Assembly (NCBI GenBank): GCA_009694865.1
Contig: SICD01000003.1
Coordinates: forward strand, 1-50,195
Length of the DNA: 50,195 nt
Direction of reading: 5' to 3'
DNA from: Candidatus Magasanikiibacteriota bacterium
Lineage (GTDB): Bacteria; Patescibacteriota; Patescibacteriia; Magasanikbacterales; GWA2-37-8
A program made the translations under genes and the position numbers. Numbering within the stretch: the stretch's first letter is position 1; every line of letters begins with the position of its first letter. Below are positions 1,254 to 25,594 of this stretch, in pieces. The notes beneath the pieces were generated by a model. It ran no database searches and had not been told where the DNA came from. It was given only the letters and a program-made list of their open reading frames with translations.

Positions 1254-2090
1254 TCACAAATACTTCTTATTCGCATTATGTTCCTCCAACGTCTTACCAT
1301 AATACATCTTTCCATCCCGCCCGCTCAAAAAATACCAATATTCATTTTTCTCTGGAGAGAGAGCGGCCTTAATCGATTCTAACCCCGGGTTAGAAATCGG
1401 CCCCGGCGGAAGCCCCGGATATTTATACGTATTCCATGGAGAATCCATATCACGTTCCTTGTTAGTAGTAAACACATCGCCAGTTCTGTCAACCGCATAA
1501 TGCACGCTGGAGTCAACCTGCAAGGCCCAGCCACGCCTGACGCGCCGCCACAAAATATCAGCCACCTTAGTGCGGTCTTCGTCGTGCTTTACTTCTCTCT
1601 CAACAATGCTCGCCATCGTAATTATTTCATGCACACTCGCCCCGCTTTTATTAACCGCCTTGTATATATCGGCCGTGAACTGTTTATCACGCTCCTTAAT
1701 TAACTTCTTAATAACATCCTCTAAGCGAGCATCCGCAAACACGCGGTAGGTCTCTGGCGCCAAATACCCTTCATAGCTAATGTTGCGCTCTTTAAATTGA
1801 GTTATTGATGTATCCAGTTCAATATGTGGGCCACGATTCGCCACCATCCGGTAATCCCGAGCAGGCTCGCCTGTGATTCTATAAACATCGTCTGTGGTAG
1901 ACGCAAATCCCTTTAACACCAAATATTCCGCCACCTGCCGCAAATTCCACCCCGGAATAATTGTTATAGTCACTTCCGGGCGAGGCGGAATAGGAATATA
2001 TACGGGATGAAAATGACGATATATTTTAAAAACAAAAAAACTGCCTCCGACGAAGAATATGAGAAGAAGGACTTTAGCGCGCAAGGACAT
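1254..2090 (-). CDS. mltG: Endolytic transglycosylase MltG
   Basis: N-terminal TM; EGYLAPETY, ASIVERE, LQVDSSVHY, SPWNTYKYPGLPPGPISNPG motifs. Confidence 0.95.
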   Translation of the reverse strand: MSLRAKVLLLIFFVGGSFFVFKIYRHFHPVYIPIPPRPEVTITIIPGWNLRQVAEYLVLKGFASTTDDVYRITGEPARDYRMVANRGPHIELDTSITQFKERNISYEGYLAPETYRVFADARLEDVIKKLIKERDKQFTADIYKAVNKSGASVHEIITMASIVEREVKHDEDRTKVADILWRRVRRGWALQVDSSVHYAVDRTGDVFTTNKERDMDSPWNTYKYPGLPPGPISNPGLESIKAALSPEKNEYWYFLSGRDGKMYYGKTLEEHNANKKYL

Positions 2091-3646: not shown

Positions 3647-3719
3647 GGGCCTGTAACTCAGCGGTTAGAGTGCCACCCTTATAAGGTGGAAGTCGATGGT
3701 TCGATTCCATCCAGGCCCA
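3647..3719 (+). tRNA. tRNA-Ile (anticodon TAT)
   Basis: Cloverleaf: GGGCCTG/CAGGCCC acceptor, ACTC/GAGT D stem, CCACC-CTTATAA-GGTGG anticodon arm (TAT at 3680-3682), GATGG-TTCGATT-CCATC T arm, discriminator A; CCA not encoded. Confidence 0.95.
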
Positions 3720-3722
3720 CTT

Positions 3723-5625: not shown

Positions 5626-6335
5626 AAAAATCCTTGTAAATGCTGAAACGCCTCACGATAAACCACATCAAACGCCGGTGTGCCAACAAGCTTGCTCCGC
5701 CCCAATCGCGGCAAAGGTGTTTTTACTTCCGCTACAATTTTACCGGGACTCGGGGAAAGAATAATAATCCTATCAGCCAAAAGTATTGCCTGCTCGAGCG
5801 TATGTGTCACCAACACCGTTGTCATTGGCCGCGTTGCCAGCACAGTAAGAAGCCGTTCCACCACCAAAAGACTGGTATAATAATCCAAAGCCGCGAATGG
5901 TTCATCCAACAAAAACAATTCCGGTTCCTGCGCCACGGCCCGGGCAATGGCCGTAAGTTGCGCGAGCCCGCCCGAAAGTTGATACGGATATTTATCGCAG
6001 TACTTTGTTAAACCAAGCATGGTCAATATCTCCTCTCCTCGTTCGTGAGTGTTATGAGCCCCGCGAATGGCCATTTTCACATGCTGTTCTACTGTCTGCC
6101 ATGGAAAAAGCGATTCGATCACATTTTGAAAGACAAACCCAACCGGCCGAGCGGGGCGAGAAATTTTTCCAGCCGTTGGCGCCTCAAACCCGGCCAACAT
6201 TTTTAGGAGCGTTGACTTACCGCAACCATTGGGTCCCATGATGGCCACAATTTCGCCAGGATTTACCGACAAAGAAATTCCTTCGAGCACCCGATGGCTA
6301 CCATAATTTTTTGAGACTCCTGCAAATTCTATCAT
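5610..6335 (-). CDS. NitT/TauT ABC transporter ATP-binding protein
   Basis: Walker A GPNGCGKST, LSGG signature, LLDEPFAALD, VTH. Confidence 0.92.
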   Translation of the reverse strand: MIEFAGVSKNYGSHRVLEGISLSVNPGEIVAIMGPNGCGKSTLLKMLAGFEAPTAGKISRPARPVGFVFQNVIESLFPWQTVEQHVKMAIRGAHNTHERGEEILTMLGLTKYCDKYPYQLSGGLAQLTAIARAVAQEPELFLLDEPFAALDYYTSLLVVERLLTVLATRPMTTVLVTHTLEQAILLADRIIILSPSPGKIVAEVKTPLPRLGRSKLVGTPAFDVVYREAFQHLQGFLCANV

Positions 6336-18180: not shown

Positions 18181-20115
18181 TTGTTTGTGATTTTAAAACG
18201 AACAAAAAAACCAATCATTTCAACGACCGGACTTGATAAAAAATTAGTCGGCCGTCTCCGCTCTCGGATCCTGCCCGGACTCAAACAATTTAAATATCTC
18301 TCCGCTTTTCTTACGGCGCGAGAAAAACAAATTGTTCTTGGCGCGCTCGCAGTCATTATTATTACCAGTCTCGCCTGGGGTATATTATTTATCAAACATC
18401 ACCTGGTGAGCGGAGCCGGCCAGGGCGGCGCCTACTCCGAAGCGCTGGTCGGACAACCAAAATATCTTAATCCGCTATTCGCGAACGTGAGCGACATCGA
18501 CAGCGATCTCACCAGCCTTACCTATTCCGGTTTATTCGGATATGATGCCAACCAAAAACTGGTACCGATATTGGCAAAAAATATTACCACTAGCCCAGAC
18601 GGGAAAACGTATGACATCGAGATAAAAGACGGCGTAAAATGGGGAGATGGTGAAAATTTAACCGCTGATGATGTATTATTTACTTTTGAAACCGTTCAGA
18701 ACCCTGAAGTGGGCAGCCCGCTCTTTTCCAGCTTCCAAGGAATAAAAATAAAAAAAATCGACCAATCCACCATCCGTTTTACGCTTAAAGAACCCTTTGC
18801 TCCTTTTCTCCACAGTTTAACAGTAGGAATTCTACCCGAGCATCTCTGGGGAAACAACGCTCCGGGCGGACTAAAACTCGCCAAAAATAATTTGGAACCA
18901 ATGGGTACTGGAGCGTGGTTGTTTGACAAATTAACCAAAGATAACACGGGCACGATTACCAGTCTTTCTCTCAAACCAAACCCTTACTACGCGGGCACAA
19001 AAGCCCATTTTAATTTTCTTACTTTTAAATTTTTCAGCGATTTTGAAGGGGCTCTCGAAGCGCTCCGAAACCAAACGGTGCTGGCACTAAGCTTTGTGCC
19101 GGCGGAAGAAAAAGATAAACTTCCTCAAAAAAATTTCACCTTCTCCAATATCCATTTACCAGAATACACCGCGCTCTTTTTTAACAACTCACAGGCTCCC
19201 CTTTTAAAAAACGACGACTTGCGCGCCGCTTTACAAATTGGCATTGATAAGAATAGCTTAATAAAAACCGCCCTCCAAGGCGAAGGTGAGGTGGTGGATA
19301 ACCCTTTGTTAGGCTCCCTTAACACCACGGAATCATCAACCATACCCCTGGCTTTTGACGTGGCGGCGGGCAACGCGCTCTTAGATAAACATTGGGCACG
19401 AATCCAGCCGGAAGAATATTTTGCCTTGCGCCAAAAAGAAATAAACACCAATACCGCGCCCACCTCAACCGCTAATTCGGCCGGAACATCAACAACGAGT
19501 GCTGAAAAACTGCTGTCGACTGCGGAAACCAACGGGTTAATCCGGGCGGAAATGACACCTGATCAAGCATTTTTCCGCAAAACAAAAGATAACAAAACCA
19601 TACGGCTAAGCATCACCACGGTTGACACTTCCGACTACCTGGCGGTAGCAAAATTAATTGTACATTTTTGGCATGCTCTTGGCATTGCGGCTGATGTTGA
19701 GGTGGTAAGCCCCAGACAAATTGGGCGCGAAATTATTAAGCCTCGCGATTACGAAATTCTGTTGTATGGTGAAATTGTGGGAGCCGATCCTGATCCGTTT
19801 CCTTTCTGGCATTCTTCCCAAATAACTTTTCCGGGGCTTAACCTAAGCCTCTACGCTAATCGTAATGTCGATAAATGGCTCGAAGACGCCCGCGTAACGA
19901 ATGACGAAAGCAAACGCGCCGCGTTATACGCGAAATTTATCAAAGCGCTTGACACCGATCGGCCAGCCATTTTCTTATATTCACCCTACTCCACCCTTGT
20001 TACTAATGCCGCTCTTAAAGGCGTACGCTTGCCAAAAGATATCGTCTCGCCGACCGGACGCTTTGCAACCTTAGCGGAATGGTATTTGAATACCACCTGG
20101 CAGTGGCAGTGGTAA
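18181..20115 (+). CDS. Family-5 (peptide/nickel) ABC substrate-binding protein, membrane anchored
   Basis: GGAYSEALVGQPKYLNPL, LTADDVLFTF, FTLKEPFAPFL, PMGTGAW, DPFPFWHSSQ; start codon uncertain (TTG). Confidence 0.88.
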   Translation: MFVILKRTKKPIISTTGLDKKLVGRLRSRILPGLKQFKYLSAFLTAREKQIVLGALAVIIITSLAWGILFIKHHLVSGAGQGGAYSEALVGQPKYLNPLFANVSDIDSDLTSLTYSGLFGYDANQKLVPILAKNITTSPDGKTYDIEIKDGVKWGDGENLTADDVLFTFETVQNPEVGSPLFSSFQGIKIKKIDQSTIRFTLKEPFAPFLHSLTVGILPEHLWGNNAPGGLKLAKNNLEPMGTGAWLFDKLTKDNTGTITSLSLKPNPYYAGTKAHFNFLTFKFFSDFEGALEALRNQTVLALSFVPAEEKDKLPQKNFTFSNIHLPEYTALFFNNSQAPLLKNDDLRAALQIGIDKNSLIKTALQGEGEVVDNPLLGSLNTTESSTIPLAFDVAAGNALLDKHWARIQPEEYFALRQKEINTNTAPTSTANSAGTSTTSAEKLLSTAETNGLIRAEMTPDQAFFRKTKDNKTIRLSITTVDTSDYLAVAKLIVHFWHALGIAADVEVVSPRQIGREIIKPRDYEILLYGEIVGADPDPFPFWHSSQITFPGLNLSLYANRNVDKWLEDARVTNDESKRAALYAKFIKALDTDRPAIFLYSPYSTLVTNAALKGVRLPKDIVSPTGRFATLAEWYLNTTWQWQW

Positions 20116-20227
20116 CGTGACCTAGTTTATAAAGTTATCAAGTTATAAAGTTCTCAGATTGATAAATGCCACGAGCCTCGTTCGCACTTTATAAACTTTA
20201 TAACTTTACAAACTTGTAACTATCACG
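20116..20227. repeat. Inverted 8-9-mer AAAGTT/AACTTT arrays
   Basis: AGTTTATAAAGTTATCAAGTTATAAAGTT versus ACTTTATAAACTTTATAACTTTACAAACTTGTAACT; closed by CGTGA/TCACG. Confidence 0.8.
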
Positions 20228-20333
20228 GGGACGTGGCGGAATTGGTATACCCCGTCATCCGACGGGGCAGGCGCGTACGTCTCAGAAGCGTGGGGCATGC
20301 GCCCCACGCCCGGCGGATGCCGGGCGTATGGAG
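20227..20333 (+). pseudogene. Disrupted 5' part of a tRNA-Leu(CAG) with two palindromic insertions and no T arm
   Basis: TGGCGGAATTGGTATAC, CGCGTACGTCTCAGAAGCGT and ATGGAG match the intact gene at 20376 but are separated by hairpin inserts. Confidence 0.8.
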
Positions 20334-20375
20334 ACAGCGTGAATGATTATATTTTTACAAACAATTTAAAAATTA

Positions 20376-20457
20376 GGGCGAGTGGCGGAATTGGTATACG
20401 CGTACGTCTCAGAAGCGTATGGAGCAATCCTTGAGGGTTCGAGTCCCTCTTCGCCCA
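20376..20457 (+). tRNA. tRNA-Leu (anticodon CAG)
   Basis: GGGCGAG/TTCGCCC acceptor, TACGT-CTCAGAA-GCGTA anticodon arm, variable arm GGA-GCAA-TCC, GAGGG-TTCGAGT-CCCTC T arm. Confidence 0.95.
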
Positions 20458-20504
20458 CATATCTTAAATTATTTATTTTTAATTTCTTCTCGTAAGAAAA
20501 ATTT

Positions 20505-22343
20505 ATGTTAATTCCATCAGTACCCATCCCCGAGCGCAACCTGCCATCGCGCGAACGCCGTCGTTATGGCGCCGCTACTACTCGTCGCGCCGCTTCACCG
20601 AGCCATTCCGCGCCACACTCACATCACGCCACGCCACATCTTTCGGCAACTTCCGCGACTACCGTTCCCACTCTTGGCGCTGGATTAAAACTCCGCGTCG
20701 CCGTCCTCGGCGGCTTGGAGGAAGTGGGCCGCAATTGCACCTTATTTGAATATGGTGATGATATTATTATCGTTGATATGGGTTTGCAATTCCCCGAGGA
20801 AGACATGCCCGGAATCGATTACATCATTCCAAACATGAACTATCTCAAAGGTAAAGAAAAAAATATCCGCGGCGTCATTATTACCCACGGCCACTACGAT
20901 CACATCGGTGGCATTCCCCATATTATTCCCAATCTTGGCTACCCGCCCATTTACGCTCTTCCCATCACCAACGCCATCATTAAAAAACGACAGGATGATT
21001 ATAAAGGGCTACGTCCGCTGAATATTAACAACGTCAAAATTGATGATAAATTACAATTAGGAAAATTTTCAATCGAATTTTTCCACGTCAACCACAACAT
21101 CCCCGATTCCATGGGAATTGTGGTGCGCACCCCAGAAGGTGTCGTTATTCACACTGGCGATTGGAAATTTGACTACCAACCAGTTGGTGAAGCTCCGGCT
21201 GATTTGCAAAAGCTCGCCAAAATTGGCAGTGAAGGCGTGCTCGCGCTCATGAGCGACTCCACCAACGCCGCCCAAACCGGCCACCAAATGTCGGAAACGG
21301 AAATCGGCATCAACCTCGAAGAGCTCATCGCGAAAGCCCCCGGTCGCATTATCATTGGCGCTTTTTCATCGCTATTTTCCCGTATTAAACAACTCATTGA
21401 ATTCTCGGAAAAACTCGGCAAGGTGGTGGCCATTGGCGGTTACAGCATGAAAACCAACGTGGAAATTGCCAAAGAACTGGGCTACATGAAATTCAATCCC
21501 AAAACAATTGTTGATTTACGCAACATCGATAAATACCCACCCAATAAAGTGGTGATAATTTGCAGTGGCGCCCAAGGCGAAAAAAACGCGACCTTGATGA
21601 GAATAGCGAGCGGCGAACACCGCGATATTAAGATGATTGCGAGTGACACGGTGGTGTTCTCTTCATCCGTTATTCCGGGCAATGAGCGCACCATCCAACG
21701 ACTCAAAGACACCCTCTTCCGCAAAGTCGCTGAAGTTGTTCATAACGAAATGATGGATGTGCACGCTGGTGGCCACGCCAAAGCAGACGACATTAAACTC
21801 ATGATCCGCCTCCTCAACCCCAAATACTTCATTCCCCAACACGGCAACCACTTTATGTTGCGCTACAACGGCCGTATTGCTACCAGTATGGGCATGGCGA
21901 AAGAAAATGTTTTTATTGCCGATAACGGCCAAGTAATGGAATTCCAAAAAGGCATGGGCGTTCTCACCAAAGAAAAACTCACCACCGATTATGTATTCGT
22001 GGATGGCCTCGGCGTGAGCGACGAAACCAACGTTGTTCTGCGTGACCGCCAAGTCTTGGCCGAAGATGGCATGGTAGTTATTATCGCGACAGTTGATTCT
22101 AAAACCGGCAAACTAATTCAGAACCCCGATATCATCTCCCGCGGCTTTGTCTTCCTTAAATCCAACAAAGAACTCATCGAAGACCTACGCCACCGAATCA
22201 AAAAAATGGTCATCGAATCCGACCCCCTCAACTGGGCGGATACGAACTACATTAGAAATAAAATTCGCGACTACGTGGGACAGTTCTTGTTTACGAAGAC
22301 GGAAAAGAGACCGATGATTTTACCGGTGGTAATTGAGGTTTAG
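20505..22343 (+). CDS. rnj: Ribonuclease J
   Basis: LGGLEEVGRN, THGHYDHIGG, HTGDWKFD, HAGGHA, RPMILPVVIEV; low-complexity N-terminal extension. Confidence 0.96.
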   Translation: MLIPSVPIPERNLPSRERRRYGAATTRRAASPSHSAPHSHHATPHLSATSATTVPTLGAGLKLRVAVLGGLEEVGRNCTLFEYGDDIIIVDMGLQFPEEDMPGIDYIIPNMNYLKGKEKNIRGVIITHGHYDHIGGIPHIIPNLGYPPIYALPITNAIIKKRQDDYKGLRPLNINNVKIDDKLQLGKFSIEFFHVNHNIPDSMGIVVRTPEGVVIHTGDWKFDYQPVGEAPADLQKLAKIGSEGVLALMSDSTNAAQTGHQMSETEIGINLEELIAKAPGRIIIGAFSSLFSRIKQLIEFSEKLGKVVAIGGYSMKTNVEIAKELGYMKFNPKTIVDLRNIDKYPPNKVVIICSGAQGEKNATLMRIASGEHRDIKMIASDTVVFSSSVIPGNERTIQRLKDTLFRKVAEVVHNEMMDVHAGGHAKADDIKLMIRLLNPKYFIPQHGNHFMLRYNGRIATSMGMAKENVFIADNGQVMEFQKGMGVLTKEKLTTDYVFVDGLGVSDETNVVLRDRQVLAEDGMVVIIATVDSKTGKLIQNPDIISRGFVFLKSNKELIEDLRHRIKKMVIESDPLNWADTNYIRNKIRDYVGQFLFTKTEKRPMILPVVIEV

Positions 22344-25068: not shown

Positions 25069-25074
25069 ACCCCT

Positions 25075-25564
25075 GTTCATTACAGGTAATCGAGCCGCAA
25101 TTGCGGCTAGGAAAGTCCGAACACCCCCAGTTTTTATTTCGCTACCTACTGGGAAAAGGATAGTGGGCAACACCCACCGTTCCGATGGCAACATCGGAAA
25201 AGGGACAGTGGCACAGAGACAATACTACTGCGCCTCGCCGTAGCTTTAGCGGAGGCGGGAAAACCCCGCCTACGCCAAGGCTTCGGCGAGGCAAAGGAAA
25301 GGTGAAAAGTGTATGGGAGTTGTGGCCCTCGAGACCACAGCTACGATACTCCGCCCTGGAGCAATCCTTGGCGTGTGCTAAACCCTATCTGGTGCAAGAG
25401 CAGCGTCTCTCGGAGTTATTCTGAGATTCGAAAAGTTCGCTCGCTACGCCTTGCCAAAATTTTAGGACGGCGGCAAGGCTGACCCCACGAGCAATCGTGA
25501 GGCTAGATAAATGATTACCATCCCGAATAACTCGGGAAACAAAATTCGGCTTATCGCAATGAAC
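25075..25564 (+). ncRNA. rnpB: RNase P RNA
   Basis: P1 GTTCATT/AATGAAC; AGGAAAGTCCGAAC, AGTGGCACAGA, GGTGAAA, AAACCC..GGTGCAAG, TAGATAAATGAT and ACAAAATTCGGCTTAT conserved blocks in the expected order. Confidence 0.93.
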
Positions 25565-25566
25565 AA

Positions 25567-25594
25567 AAAACACCGCCCGCAAGGGTGGTGTTTT
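25567..25594. terminator. Terminator after rnpB (bidirectional with ribH)
   Basis: AAAACACCGCCC-GCAA-GGGTGGTGTTTT. Confidence 0.85.

Follow-up and report, generated by a model that had tools for sequence, protein, structure and literature searches.

A hairpin-plugged tRNA-Leu(CAG) stub in a Candidatus Magasanikiibacteriota genome, the probable relic of a tRNA-embedded GIY-YIG hairpin cassette

The stub, the intact gene and the locus in relatives

The window, i.e. the whole 50,195-nt stretch of DNA that was analysed, is contig C18 of a Candidatus Magasanikiibacteriota genome (G000) of 987 kb in 55 contigs, with 46.5% G+C, 40 tRNA genes and a completeness of 94.7%. Its RNase P is of class A by Rfam, i.e. 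that of a bacterial host. Within the window, a partial copy of a tRNA-Leu(CAG) gene interrupted by hairpins, hereafter the stub, precedes a complete gene with the same anticodon. The features of the locus are as follows.

20117..20226 (no strand assigned): AT-rich imperfect inverted repeat adjoining the stub, of a repeat family found beside many tRNA genes (from sequence)
20227..20333 (+ strand): the stub, apparently the displaced 5' part of an older tRNA-Leu(CAG) (by alignment to the intact gene; no tRNA call; absent from 11 of 11 relatives)
20227..20233 (+ strand): acceptor 5' strand of the stub, GGGGACG, one base from the family majority allele GCGGACG
20250..20271 (+ strand): 22-nt hairpin unit inserted on the 3' side of the D arm, CCCCGTC and GACGGGG around ATCC, followed by CAGG
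20290..20325 (+ strand): 36-nt double hairpin that interrupts the 3' strand of the anticodon stem, GTGGGGC and GCCCCAC around ATGC, followed by GCCCGGC and GCCGGGC around GGAT
20334..20375 (+ strand): AT-rich spacer of 42 nt between the stub and the intact gene, ORF-free (from sequence)
20376..20458 (+ strand): intact tRNA-Leu(CAG) of the GGGCGAG...TTCGCCC allele type (ARAGORN; Rfam 53.7 bits)

The stub aligned to nt 1 to 49 of the intact gene and was composed of 49 tRNA-derived nt, in pieces of 23, 18 and 8, and 58 inserted nt. The first insert (CCCCGTCATCCGACGGGGCAGG, 22 nt, 20250-20271, with a border ambiguous by 1 nt) had been placed at about 20251-20271 in the first-pass annotation, and the second (GTGGGGCATGCGCCCCACGCCCGGCGGATGCCGGGC, 36 nt, 20290-20325) is the same double hairpin that had been put at 20292-20327, now shifted by 2 nt. 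With both inserts removed, linear positions 8 to 49 of the two copies were identical (42/42), as had been claimed for the D and anticodon arms. The acceptor 5' strands were also found to differ as described, at 3 of 7 bases (GGGGACG in the stub, GGGCGAG in the intact gene). Likeness to the intact gene was lost after ATGGAG, which leaves the stub without the T arm, already noted as missing, and without a 3' acceptor strand.

The stub was not called a tRNA by ARAGORN, at the Rfam gathering score or at the permissive Rfam threshold of E <= 0.1. Judged as a functional tRNA gene it falls short and its neighbour at 20376-20458 does not, in agreement with the earlier description of the upstream copy as dead. 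Rfam searches of the window locus and nine related G000 loci returned intact tRNAs and weak chance matches only. As DNA, the double hairpin was predicted to fold at -18.7 kcal/mol (z = -3.5; 0/200 shuffles as good) and the first hairpin at -8.7 kcal/mol (z = -2.4). A simple scan of 19950-20560 for promoters and terminators found none, and the stub hairpins were therefore not regarded as intrinsic terminators.

Stub DNA was recovered in Logan contigs of three DNA runs from two studies; one of these runs is possibly the assembly's own source. The contigs covered 20186-20411 (X1), 20186-20700 (X2) and 20186-20422 (X3) with 0 differences and 0 gaps, and a single X2 contig (record 10, 20186-20700) spanned the whole stub. 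Because the contigs of all three runs match with 0 differences, the stub is real DNA. Metagenome contig depth jumps at the AT-rich inverted repeat (20117-20226), further copies of which were located in G000 at C1:8217-8296, C46:28523-28595, C48:29113-29160 and C35:605-642, and also in genomes G001, G015, G023 and G009.

When the locus was compared in relatives, as had been proposed, the same upstream and downstream genes flanked a single uninterrupted tRNA-Leu(CAG) in 11 of 11, and the stub was found in none. Since both flanks are syntenic throughout, there is no island at the locus, only about 150 extra bases. The AT-rich element that adjoins the stub in the window adjoins the single tRNA-Leu(CAG) in G015 and G009. 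From these alignments, the stub appears to lie where the tRNA-Leu(CAG) gene formerly sat. Among the 11 relatives, the acceptor allele was GCGGACG in eight, including the same-genus G001, GGGCGAG in two (G016 and G020) and GGGCGCG in one. The best match of the intact gene was the tRNA-Leu(CAG) of G016, a member of another genus (97% identity). Because it carries GGGCGAG with a matching 3' strand and has its best match in G016, the intact gene represents another allele than the source of the stub, and the differing acceptor strand of the stub is the signature of a different allele, not of decay. The complete gene of this other allele type, 42 nt downstream, to judge by its sequence does the job, and the suggestion that a second complete copy (20376-20458) replaces the dead one was upheld.

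The sole informative interior site is position 16, with T in both the stub and the intact copy but C in the same-genus G001. Arrival with the new allele, or homogenisation, may thus account for the interior of the stub. Since interior positions 8 to 49, position 16 included, equal those of the intact copy, only the position and the acceptor strand can safely be ascribed to an "old resident gene". A second allele replacement was seen on C22 of G000, where the dead left copy of tRNA-Arg(CCT) is 100% identical to the gene of G003 over 54 nt and the intact gene is 94% identical to that of G004.

Hairpin units and small GIY-YIG genes at other loci

Earlier scans of G000 for partial tRNA copies with 11-mers and 8-mers drowned in chance matches and were replaced by a scan of tRNA gene flanks for exact matches of at least 9 nt, blind to hairpins. 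It returned partial copies beside 7 of the 40 tRNA genes: Leu(CAG) in the window, Leu(GAG) on C30, Arg(GCG) on C55, Asp(GTC) on C38, Arg(CCT) on C22, Ser(TGA) on C11 and Glu(TTC) on C50. All seven partial copies were interrupted by GC-rich hairpins. Of 345 GC-rich hairpins, 14 lay in the dead copies (969 nt in all), a 41-fold excess over expectation; genome-wide, 204 GC-rich perfect hairpins were counted in G000 versus 21 in a block shuffle. At four of the seven loci (C30, C38, C50 and C55), a GIY-YIG ORF of 81 to 89 aa lay between the stub and the intact tRNA, and the C30 ORF is a GIY-YIG domain (Pfam PF01541, E = 1.7e-16).

Small GIY-YIG genes were detected in 60 of 61 genomes of the family, with about 270 matches, and were most numerous in G000 (14). 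Among the 30 best-scoring loci, most fell into groups without a neighbouring tRNA; genes of the cassette type (MYYVYIL..) sat directly at tRNA genes. Eleven cassette-type loci found without use of the hairpins could be assessed, and seven of these (C30, C38, C50, C55, L037, L051 and L054) had a stub, a hairpin, an ORF and a tRNA in that layout. As to other cassette-type loci, L029, L044 and C31 had other tRNA-linked layouts, C11:55576 had no adjacent tRNA and L055 began at a contig end. The usual layout of the cassette, as read from these loci, is a broken tRNA copy with GC hairpins, then a single-domain GIY-YIG gene of ~85 aa and then an intact tRNA.

The type of hairpin appeared to track the subfamily of the GIY-YIG ORF. 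"LLSLKDK-type" ORFs were accompanied by the double hairpin in 5 of 5 cases, four of these loci having been found by searching for the double hairpin, and the Leu-type ORFs of C30 and L051 were accompanied by CCTGCC palindromes. The cassette nucleases matched the UPF0213 structures 1zg2 (E = 2e-8) and 1ywl. The cassette ORFs matched no specific NCBIfam model and gave only sub-threshold matches to group I intron endonucleases.

The double-hairpin pattern of the window, searched with <= 2 mismatches, occurred in 7 of 240 genomes of the order, from three families, and the reversed control gave 0. Its exact consensus was present at 14 loci of the species-genome collection, 7 of which were already known from the preceding hairpin searches. 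In 17 aligned copies from other genomes or loci, 98.7% of cells were paired and 10 of 14 pairs were invariant; one pair covaried (UA 9, AU 4, CG 3), and the middle base of the loops (ATNC, GNAT) was hypervariable, taking all four values. The 36-nt unit of the window was identical to the one in the cassette of G119 (L022) and differed by 1 to 2 nt from its counterparts at L024 and L075. The 22-nt unit was 1 nt away from a copy in the left tRNA-Ser stub of L075, where it lies beside a double hairpin, and was also found at C11:42204 of G000. On this distribution, the three hairpins of the stub appear to be two discrete mobile units, of 22 and 36 nt, whose families accompany small tRNA-borne cassettes in Patescibacteria.

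Most double-hairpin copies sat within a displaced tRNA piece, in its T loop. In 17 other contexts their flanks were mostly the two halves of the T loop, TTC on one side and GAATCC on the other, in either orientation. The first-pass annotation had pointed to GCGT at both ends of the insert. That repeat is present in the window copy, but it is not a target-site duplication, because the flanks of the other copies differ.

At L022, L024, L054 and L075, a stub, the double hairpin, a GIY-YIG ORF and an intact tRNA-Ser followed one another, and L025 showed the same order with a shortened ORF. At L072, L068, L065 and L023, 3' partial copies with the double hairpin in the T loop lay downstream of the live tRNA, three of them in tandem at L072. 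Relative to the tRNA, double hairpins occurred on either strand. Some copies lie away from nuclease genes, and the hairpins may therefore move on their own: in G112 the 36-nt unit lies in frame within a 521-aa ABC-F-like ORF, and at L018 the double hairpin is intergenic. On contig C16 of G039, the 22-nt unit directly follows a second, diverged copy of codons 1 to 13 of a radA-like gene; hence the layout of old front end, hairpin and new front end is not limited to tRNA genes.

Origin of the stub

The window locus shares with the ORF-bearing cassettes a partial copy beside an intact tRNA of the same anticodon, and GC hairpins; a single-domain GIY-YIG ORF between the two copies is lacking. As the 42-nt gap has no ORF, the locus was filed as a relic and not as a full member. 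No GIY-YIG match was obtained on contig C18. In local alignments of the spacer (20334-20375) with the starts and ends of 13 cassette ORFs, 35/300 and 111/300 shuffles scored as well, and the idea that the spacer is a collapsed GIY-YIG gene was dropped on that account. Since no such ORF is present and the spacer is unlike the ORF ends, it is by hairpin units and layout that the locus is assigned to the cassettes. The stub is thus probably the front part of a tRNA-Leu(CAG) that was pushed aside when the gene was replaced. Plugged with two mobile hairpin units, it is best taken as the ORF-less relic of a tRNA-embedded GIY-YIG hairpin cassette. That the cassette of the window lost, or never had, its nuclease gene is the best explanation for its present form. 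G012 has the left piece and the double hairpin of the same-genus G079, but without the ORF, which by comparison of the two sequences would be a precedent for the ORF-less state.

In the proposed mechanism, a cassette of hairpin, nuclease gene and tRNA (or part of a tRNA) would recombine into a resident tRNA gene, with homology provided by the conserved tRNA sequence. The front end of the resident gene would be pushed upstream, and the cassette's own tRNA would keep the host supplied with a working gene. By analogy with the Ssn nucleases discussed below, the enzyme would recognise the hairpins as single-stranded DNA and cut beside them. The cut would fall in tRNA-derived sequence, and the resulting recombinogenic end would start recombination. 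Later loss of the ORF would leave a stub such as that in the window. Recognition of the hairpins as single-stranded DNA, suggested by the same analogy, is the leading guess as to their role; alternatively, they may break up the direct repeat so that the cassette escapes deletion, may split the nuclease target in the stub, or may prevent wrong pairing between the surplus 5' half and the live tRNA where both are on one transcript. The first-pass annotation had proposed, as one possibility, palindrome insertion as the first, inactivating event. That order found no support: every comparable copy is also 3'-truncated, and the hairpins would have been part of the replacement's package.

Redundancy followed by decay would also lead to such a stub, and we consider it a distinctly less probable course. 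A second tRNA-Leu(CAG) allele would have arrived by lateral transfer or duplication, and the old gene would have lost its 3' part and then been colonised by autonomous mini-palindromes preferring tRNA-like DNA, no nuclease cassette ever having been present here. The ORF-free locus, with its spacer unlike cassette ORF ends, fits this course. So do the double hairpins found without a neighbouring nuclease gene in the ABC-F-like ORF, at the intergenic L018 and in the tandem 3' copies (L072, L068), and the insertion flanks (TTC/GAA), which suggest a target preference of the hairpins' own. It would, however, leave unexplained that all stubs are truncated with a complete copy directly or almost directly beside them, that hairpin type and GIY-YIG subfamily match, and that the ORF is still present at four of the seven such loci of G000; moreover, ORF loss does occur, as in G012 versus G079. 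A search for the Y1 (HUH) transposase domain PF01797 gave 0 matches in G000, at its completeness of 94.7% (control positive in 6 of 14 known genomes), which is evidence against an IS200/RAYT-type mover and sets the units apart from REP/RAYT or IS200/IS605-derived hairpin elements.

Retention of the stub for a role in RNA is unlikely. It might, for instance, serve the tRNA transcript as a structured leader, with hairpins that stabilise this transcript or prevent mispairing between the spare 5' half and the genuine tRNA's 3' half. The tRNA-derived pieces are identical at 42/42 positions and yet the acceptor strand, which would be able to pair with the live 3' strand, is changed. The RNA of the stub is predicted to fold at -59.3 kcal/mol (z = -3.05), more stably than shuffles, and hairpin pairing is conserved across the 17 copies, with one covarying pair. 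The native upstream element precedes the stub, so that co-transcription is plausible. On the other hand, no such leader occurs at the locus in any of the 11 relatives, and the acceptor strand is unchanged at four of the seven stub loci of G000. The same hairpins also occur within a protein-coding gene and in both orientations to the tRNA, which fits DNA-level elements instead. No RNA run contained the locus, the six listed having only small shares of the sequence words (0.04 to 0.12), and the simple scan had returned neither promoter nor terminator.

That the stub is a tRNA whose inserts are removed, or one half (5') of a split tRNA, is highly improbable. Taking out both inserts does restore perfect D and anticodon arms, but it yields positions 1 to 49 only, without T arm and 3' acceptor strand. 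No 3' half (T-arm motif then CGTCCCC) was found in G000 (0 candidates), a search that the first-pass annotation had suggested while rating removable inserts as the less likely reading, and rightly so. There was no Rfam tRNA match at E <= 0.1, a complete gene for this anticodon follows after 42 nt, and the 36-nt unit is read through in frame in the 521-aa ORF. Finally, flanking repeats interrupt short-read contigs at 20185-20222 and 20382-20420, but an assembly artefact, the caveat raised in the first-pass annotation, is excluded for all practical purposes by the error-free coverage of the stub in three runs from two studies and by the X2 contig across it.

Among known systems, the mobile GIY-YIG ORF and double-hairpin elements (DHE) of Allomyces are closest to the cassette in layout. 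In work by Paquin, Laforest and Lang (1994/2000), a free-standing GIY-YIG gene of Allomyces mitochondria reportedly enters a host gene and brings a replacement gene end, the old end being left as a pseudogene. That system is mitochondrial, targets a protein gene (atp6) and duplicates its 3' end, whereas the cassette lies on a bacterial chromosome in tRNA genes and mostly displaces the 5' end. Mitochondrial double-hairpin elements measure 26 to 79 nt. The 36-nt unit, with two 7-bp G+C-rich stems and occurrences in 7 of 240 genomes in different contexts, conforms to them in a likeness of shape only. Rickettsia palindromic elements (RPE) and the GC clusters of yeast mitochondria are short palindromes that insert in RNA genes and, in frame, in protein genes. 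They share in-frame insertion with the 36-nt unit (G112); RPE are longer and the sequences differ. We know of no link of either to tRNA stubs or to a GIY-YIG gene. The available part of one article mentions the GC clusters and cites the DHE of Allomyces mitochondria as G+C-rich, mobile and not removed from transcripts (PMC2800124).

Two further systems share the association with tRNA genes. SegB of phage T4 is a free-standing GIY-YIG homing endonuclease in a tRNA gene cluster and drives the preferential inheritance of its tRNA region. Both are GIY-YIG genes among tRNA genes, but SegB is multi-domain and from a phage, and the cassette nuclease is single-domain and bacterial. To our knowledge, neither hairpin units nor a broken tRNA copy have been described for SegB. 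At integrase att sites, it is the 3' end of the tRNA that is repeated, beyond an integrase-bearing island. These sites and the window have in common a partial tRNA copy beside an intact tRNA; the repeat in the window is the 5' part, 42 nt away. An att scar of the integrase type was rejected on these two points and because both flanks are syntenic in 11 of 11 relatives. Of the integration scar proposed earlier, the scar of a mobile-DNA event was retained, and the integrase-type att scar was not.

Of published systems, the closest is Ssn (Chenal et al. 2025, PMC11893778), likewise a small single-domain GIY-YIG gene with hairpin repeats. In the available part of that article, Ssn nucleases are described as single-domain GIY-YIG proteins of about 90 aa (94 aa) whose gene is accompanied by hairpin-forming repeats of 20 to 50 nt (NTS/SRM), a layout that its authors liken to an insertion sequence. 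Ssn is reported there to bind the repeats only as single-stranded DNA and to cut a few nt upstream (PMC11893778). The core of the first window hairpin, GTCATYC, resembles the start of the published NTS (CGTCATTC) (PMC11893778). The published SRM pattern HGTCWY..RNCYNB, in turn, had 8 matches in G000 versus 3 to 9 in shuffles, none of them at 20227-20333. The cassette nucleases are nearest to UPF0213 structures and are likened to Ssn by size, domain and hairpin company. In contrast to the cassettes, tRNA is never mentioned in the main text of the Ssn paper, as far as it was available, nor is there gene-end duplication or gene replacement in it (PMC11893778). In a full-text search of the main texts of open-access articles, no account came up of GIY-YIG hairpin cassettes within tRNA genes of bacteria.

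Implications for tRNA genes of Patescibacteria

More tentatively, the hairpin units could be the sites recognised by a hitherto undescribed class of mini GIY-YIG nucleases homing into tRNA genes. The near-universal conservation of tRNAs would provide the homology arms, and the replacement tRNA, or part of a tRNA, would make insertion harmless. Such homing might drive the turnover of tRNA alleles across genera of Patescibacteria, with hairpin-plugged stubs as its fossil record; we hold this wider scheme to be possible rather than probable. If it is true, it would account for the stray palindromes and the odd incomplete tRNA copies of many metagenome-assembled genomes, and annotators would label such stubs as relics instead of tRNA pseudogenes whose origin is unknown. 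It would also provide natural pairs of tiny nucleases and short DNA hairpins as candidates for site-specific single-strand cutters. The tRNA genes of these ultra-small bacteria would then house a compact selfish element that spares its host by bringing a replacement for the gene it breaks, by a route that differs from the usual intron or intein path of homing endonuclease genes, and whole tRNA alleles would be swapped between genera.

tRNA loci with cassettes and partial copies

Cassettes, as the term is used here, comprise a broken tRNA copy with GC hairpins, a single-domain GIY-YIG ORF (~85 aa), and an intact tRNA. Beyond the window, the source genome (G000) contained the following related loci.

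C50:1-700 (L060): tRNA-Glu(TTC) cassette whose stub measures 11 nt, with hairpins and a GIY-YIG ORF
C11:57175-57548 (L061): tRNA-Ser(TGA) with an upstream 5' stub and a downstream 3' partial copy
C31:5703-6160: tRNA-Met(CAT), then two rounds of paired hairpins, then a cassette-type GIY-YIG ORF

On the 3' side of the live tRNA-Glu(TTC), at least two tandem units were found to reach the contig end, each composed of a 20-nt spacer and tRNA positions 23-75, the anticodon loop of which contains a ~47-nt double hairpin. At the tRNA-Ser(TGA) locus, the stub and the 3' partial copy shared the same 48-nt anticodon-loop insert, TCACCC..GGGTGA plus TCCCCC GCGA GGGGGA, and no ORF was observed between them. 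The paired hairpins following tRNA-Met(CAT), ACGACGC TTA GCGTCGT and TCACGC TTA GCGTGA, terminated in CACCA, and the layout of this locus is a downstream-oriented form of the cassette.

Dispersed repeats and a second GIY-YIG type

Three families of paired GC hairpins, with ~90-105 nt between partners, were present on many contigs of the same genome.

CCCCGC TTGG GCGGGG with TTCCCCGC CCAA GCGGGGAA
CCCCCC TCGA GGGGGG, two copies
CCCTCTCC TCGA GGAGAGGG, two copies

Each family was represented by several loci (examples of paired hairpins are C2:10444-10547, C49:3841-3948, and C16:1333-1424) and resembles a miniature inverted-repeat element. Separately, two facing hairpins, TGTCATTCCCGCGAAAGCGGGAATCCAG and its partner, were located at C50:10108-10170 and were nearly identical to the Neisseria NTS consensus given in the paper on Ssn GIY-YIG nucleases (PMC11893778). 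A second type of GIY-YIG ORF (..YVGVTNNLERRI..), numbering approximately six in the genome, may be Ssn-like.

Beside the tRNA-Leu(CAG) stub, a repeat of a different composition was observed.

Window 20117-20226: AT-rich imperfect inverted repeat, TATAAAGTTATCAAGTTATAAAGTT ... ACTTTATAAACTTTATAACTTTACAAACTTGTAAC

Members of its family adjoin many tRNA genes in the source genome as well as in G001, G015, G023, and G009. The element coincides with a break point of metagenome contigs, where depth rises from ~8 to 200-400. It may be promoter DNA or, alternatively, a small mobile element.

Uncommon anticodons and an enlarged RNase P RNA

The noncoding RNAs identified included the following.

Window 3647-3720: tRNA-Ile, anticodon TAT (ARAGORN; Rfam, 74.7 bits)
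G000 C35:170-258: tRNA-Ser, anticodon ACT (ARAGORN)
G002 C8:334-422 (L015): tRNA-Ser, anticodon ACT (ARAGORN)
Window 25074-25569: RNase P RNA, class A (124 bits)

Reading of AUA by a tRNA-Ile that bears TAT is uncommon in bacteria. The ACT anticodon, with A at position 34, is likewise unusual, and the ARAGORN calls for it, in G000 and G002, span two genera. The RNase P RNA is 496 nt long compared with the 367 positions of the model; its extra stretches measure 22 nt, 49 nt, and several shorter lengths, and some of them are GC-rich hairpins.

Hairpin units of the window at protein-coding genes

The two hairpin units inserted in the window's tRNA-Leu(CAG) stub were also found at protein-coding genes in other genomes.

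G112 C29 (L021), 1499-1534, minus strand: 36-nt double hairpin
G039 C16 (L017), ~5780-5860: radA-like gene with its first 13 codons duplicated and diverged

The double hairpin lies in frame within a 521-aa ABC-F-like ORF, contributing 12 codons (ARHTPGEGRMPL) upstream of a Walker A motif. At the radA-like gene, the order is MKSSNLFICSKCD, the 22-nt hairpin, and then MKQGNLFICSKCDAQ..., which is the layout of stub, hairpin, and new front end with a protein-coding gene as the host.
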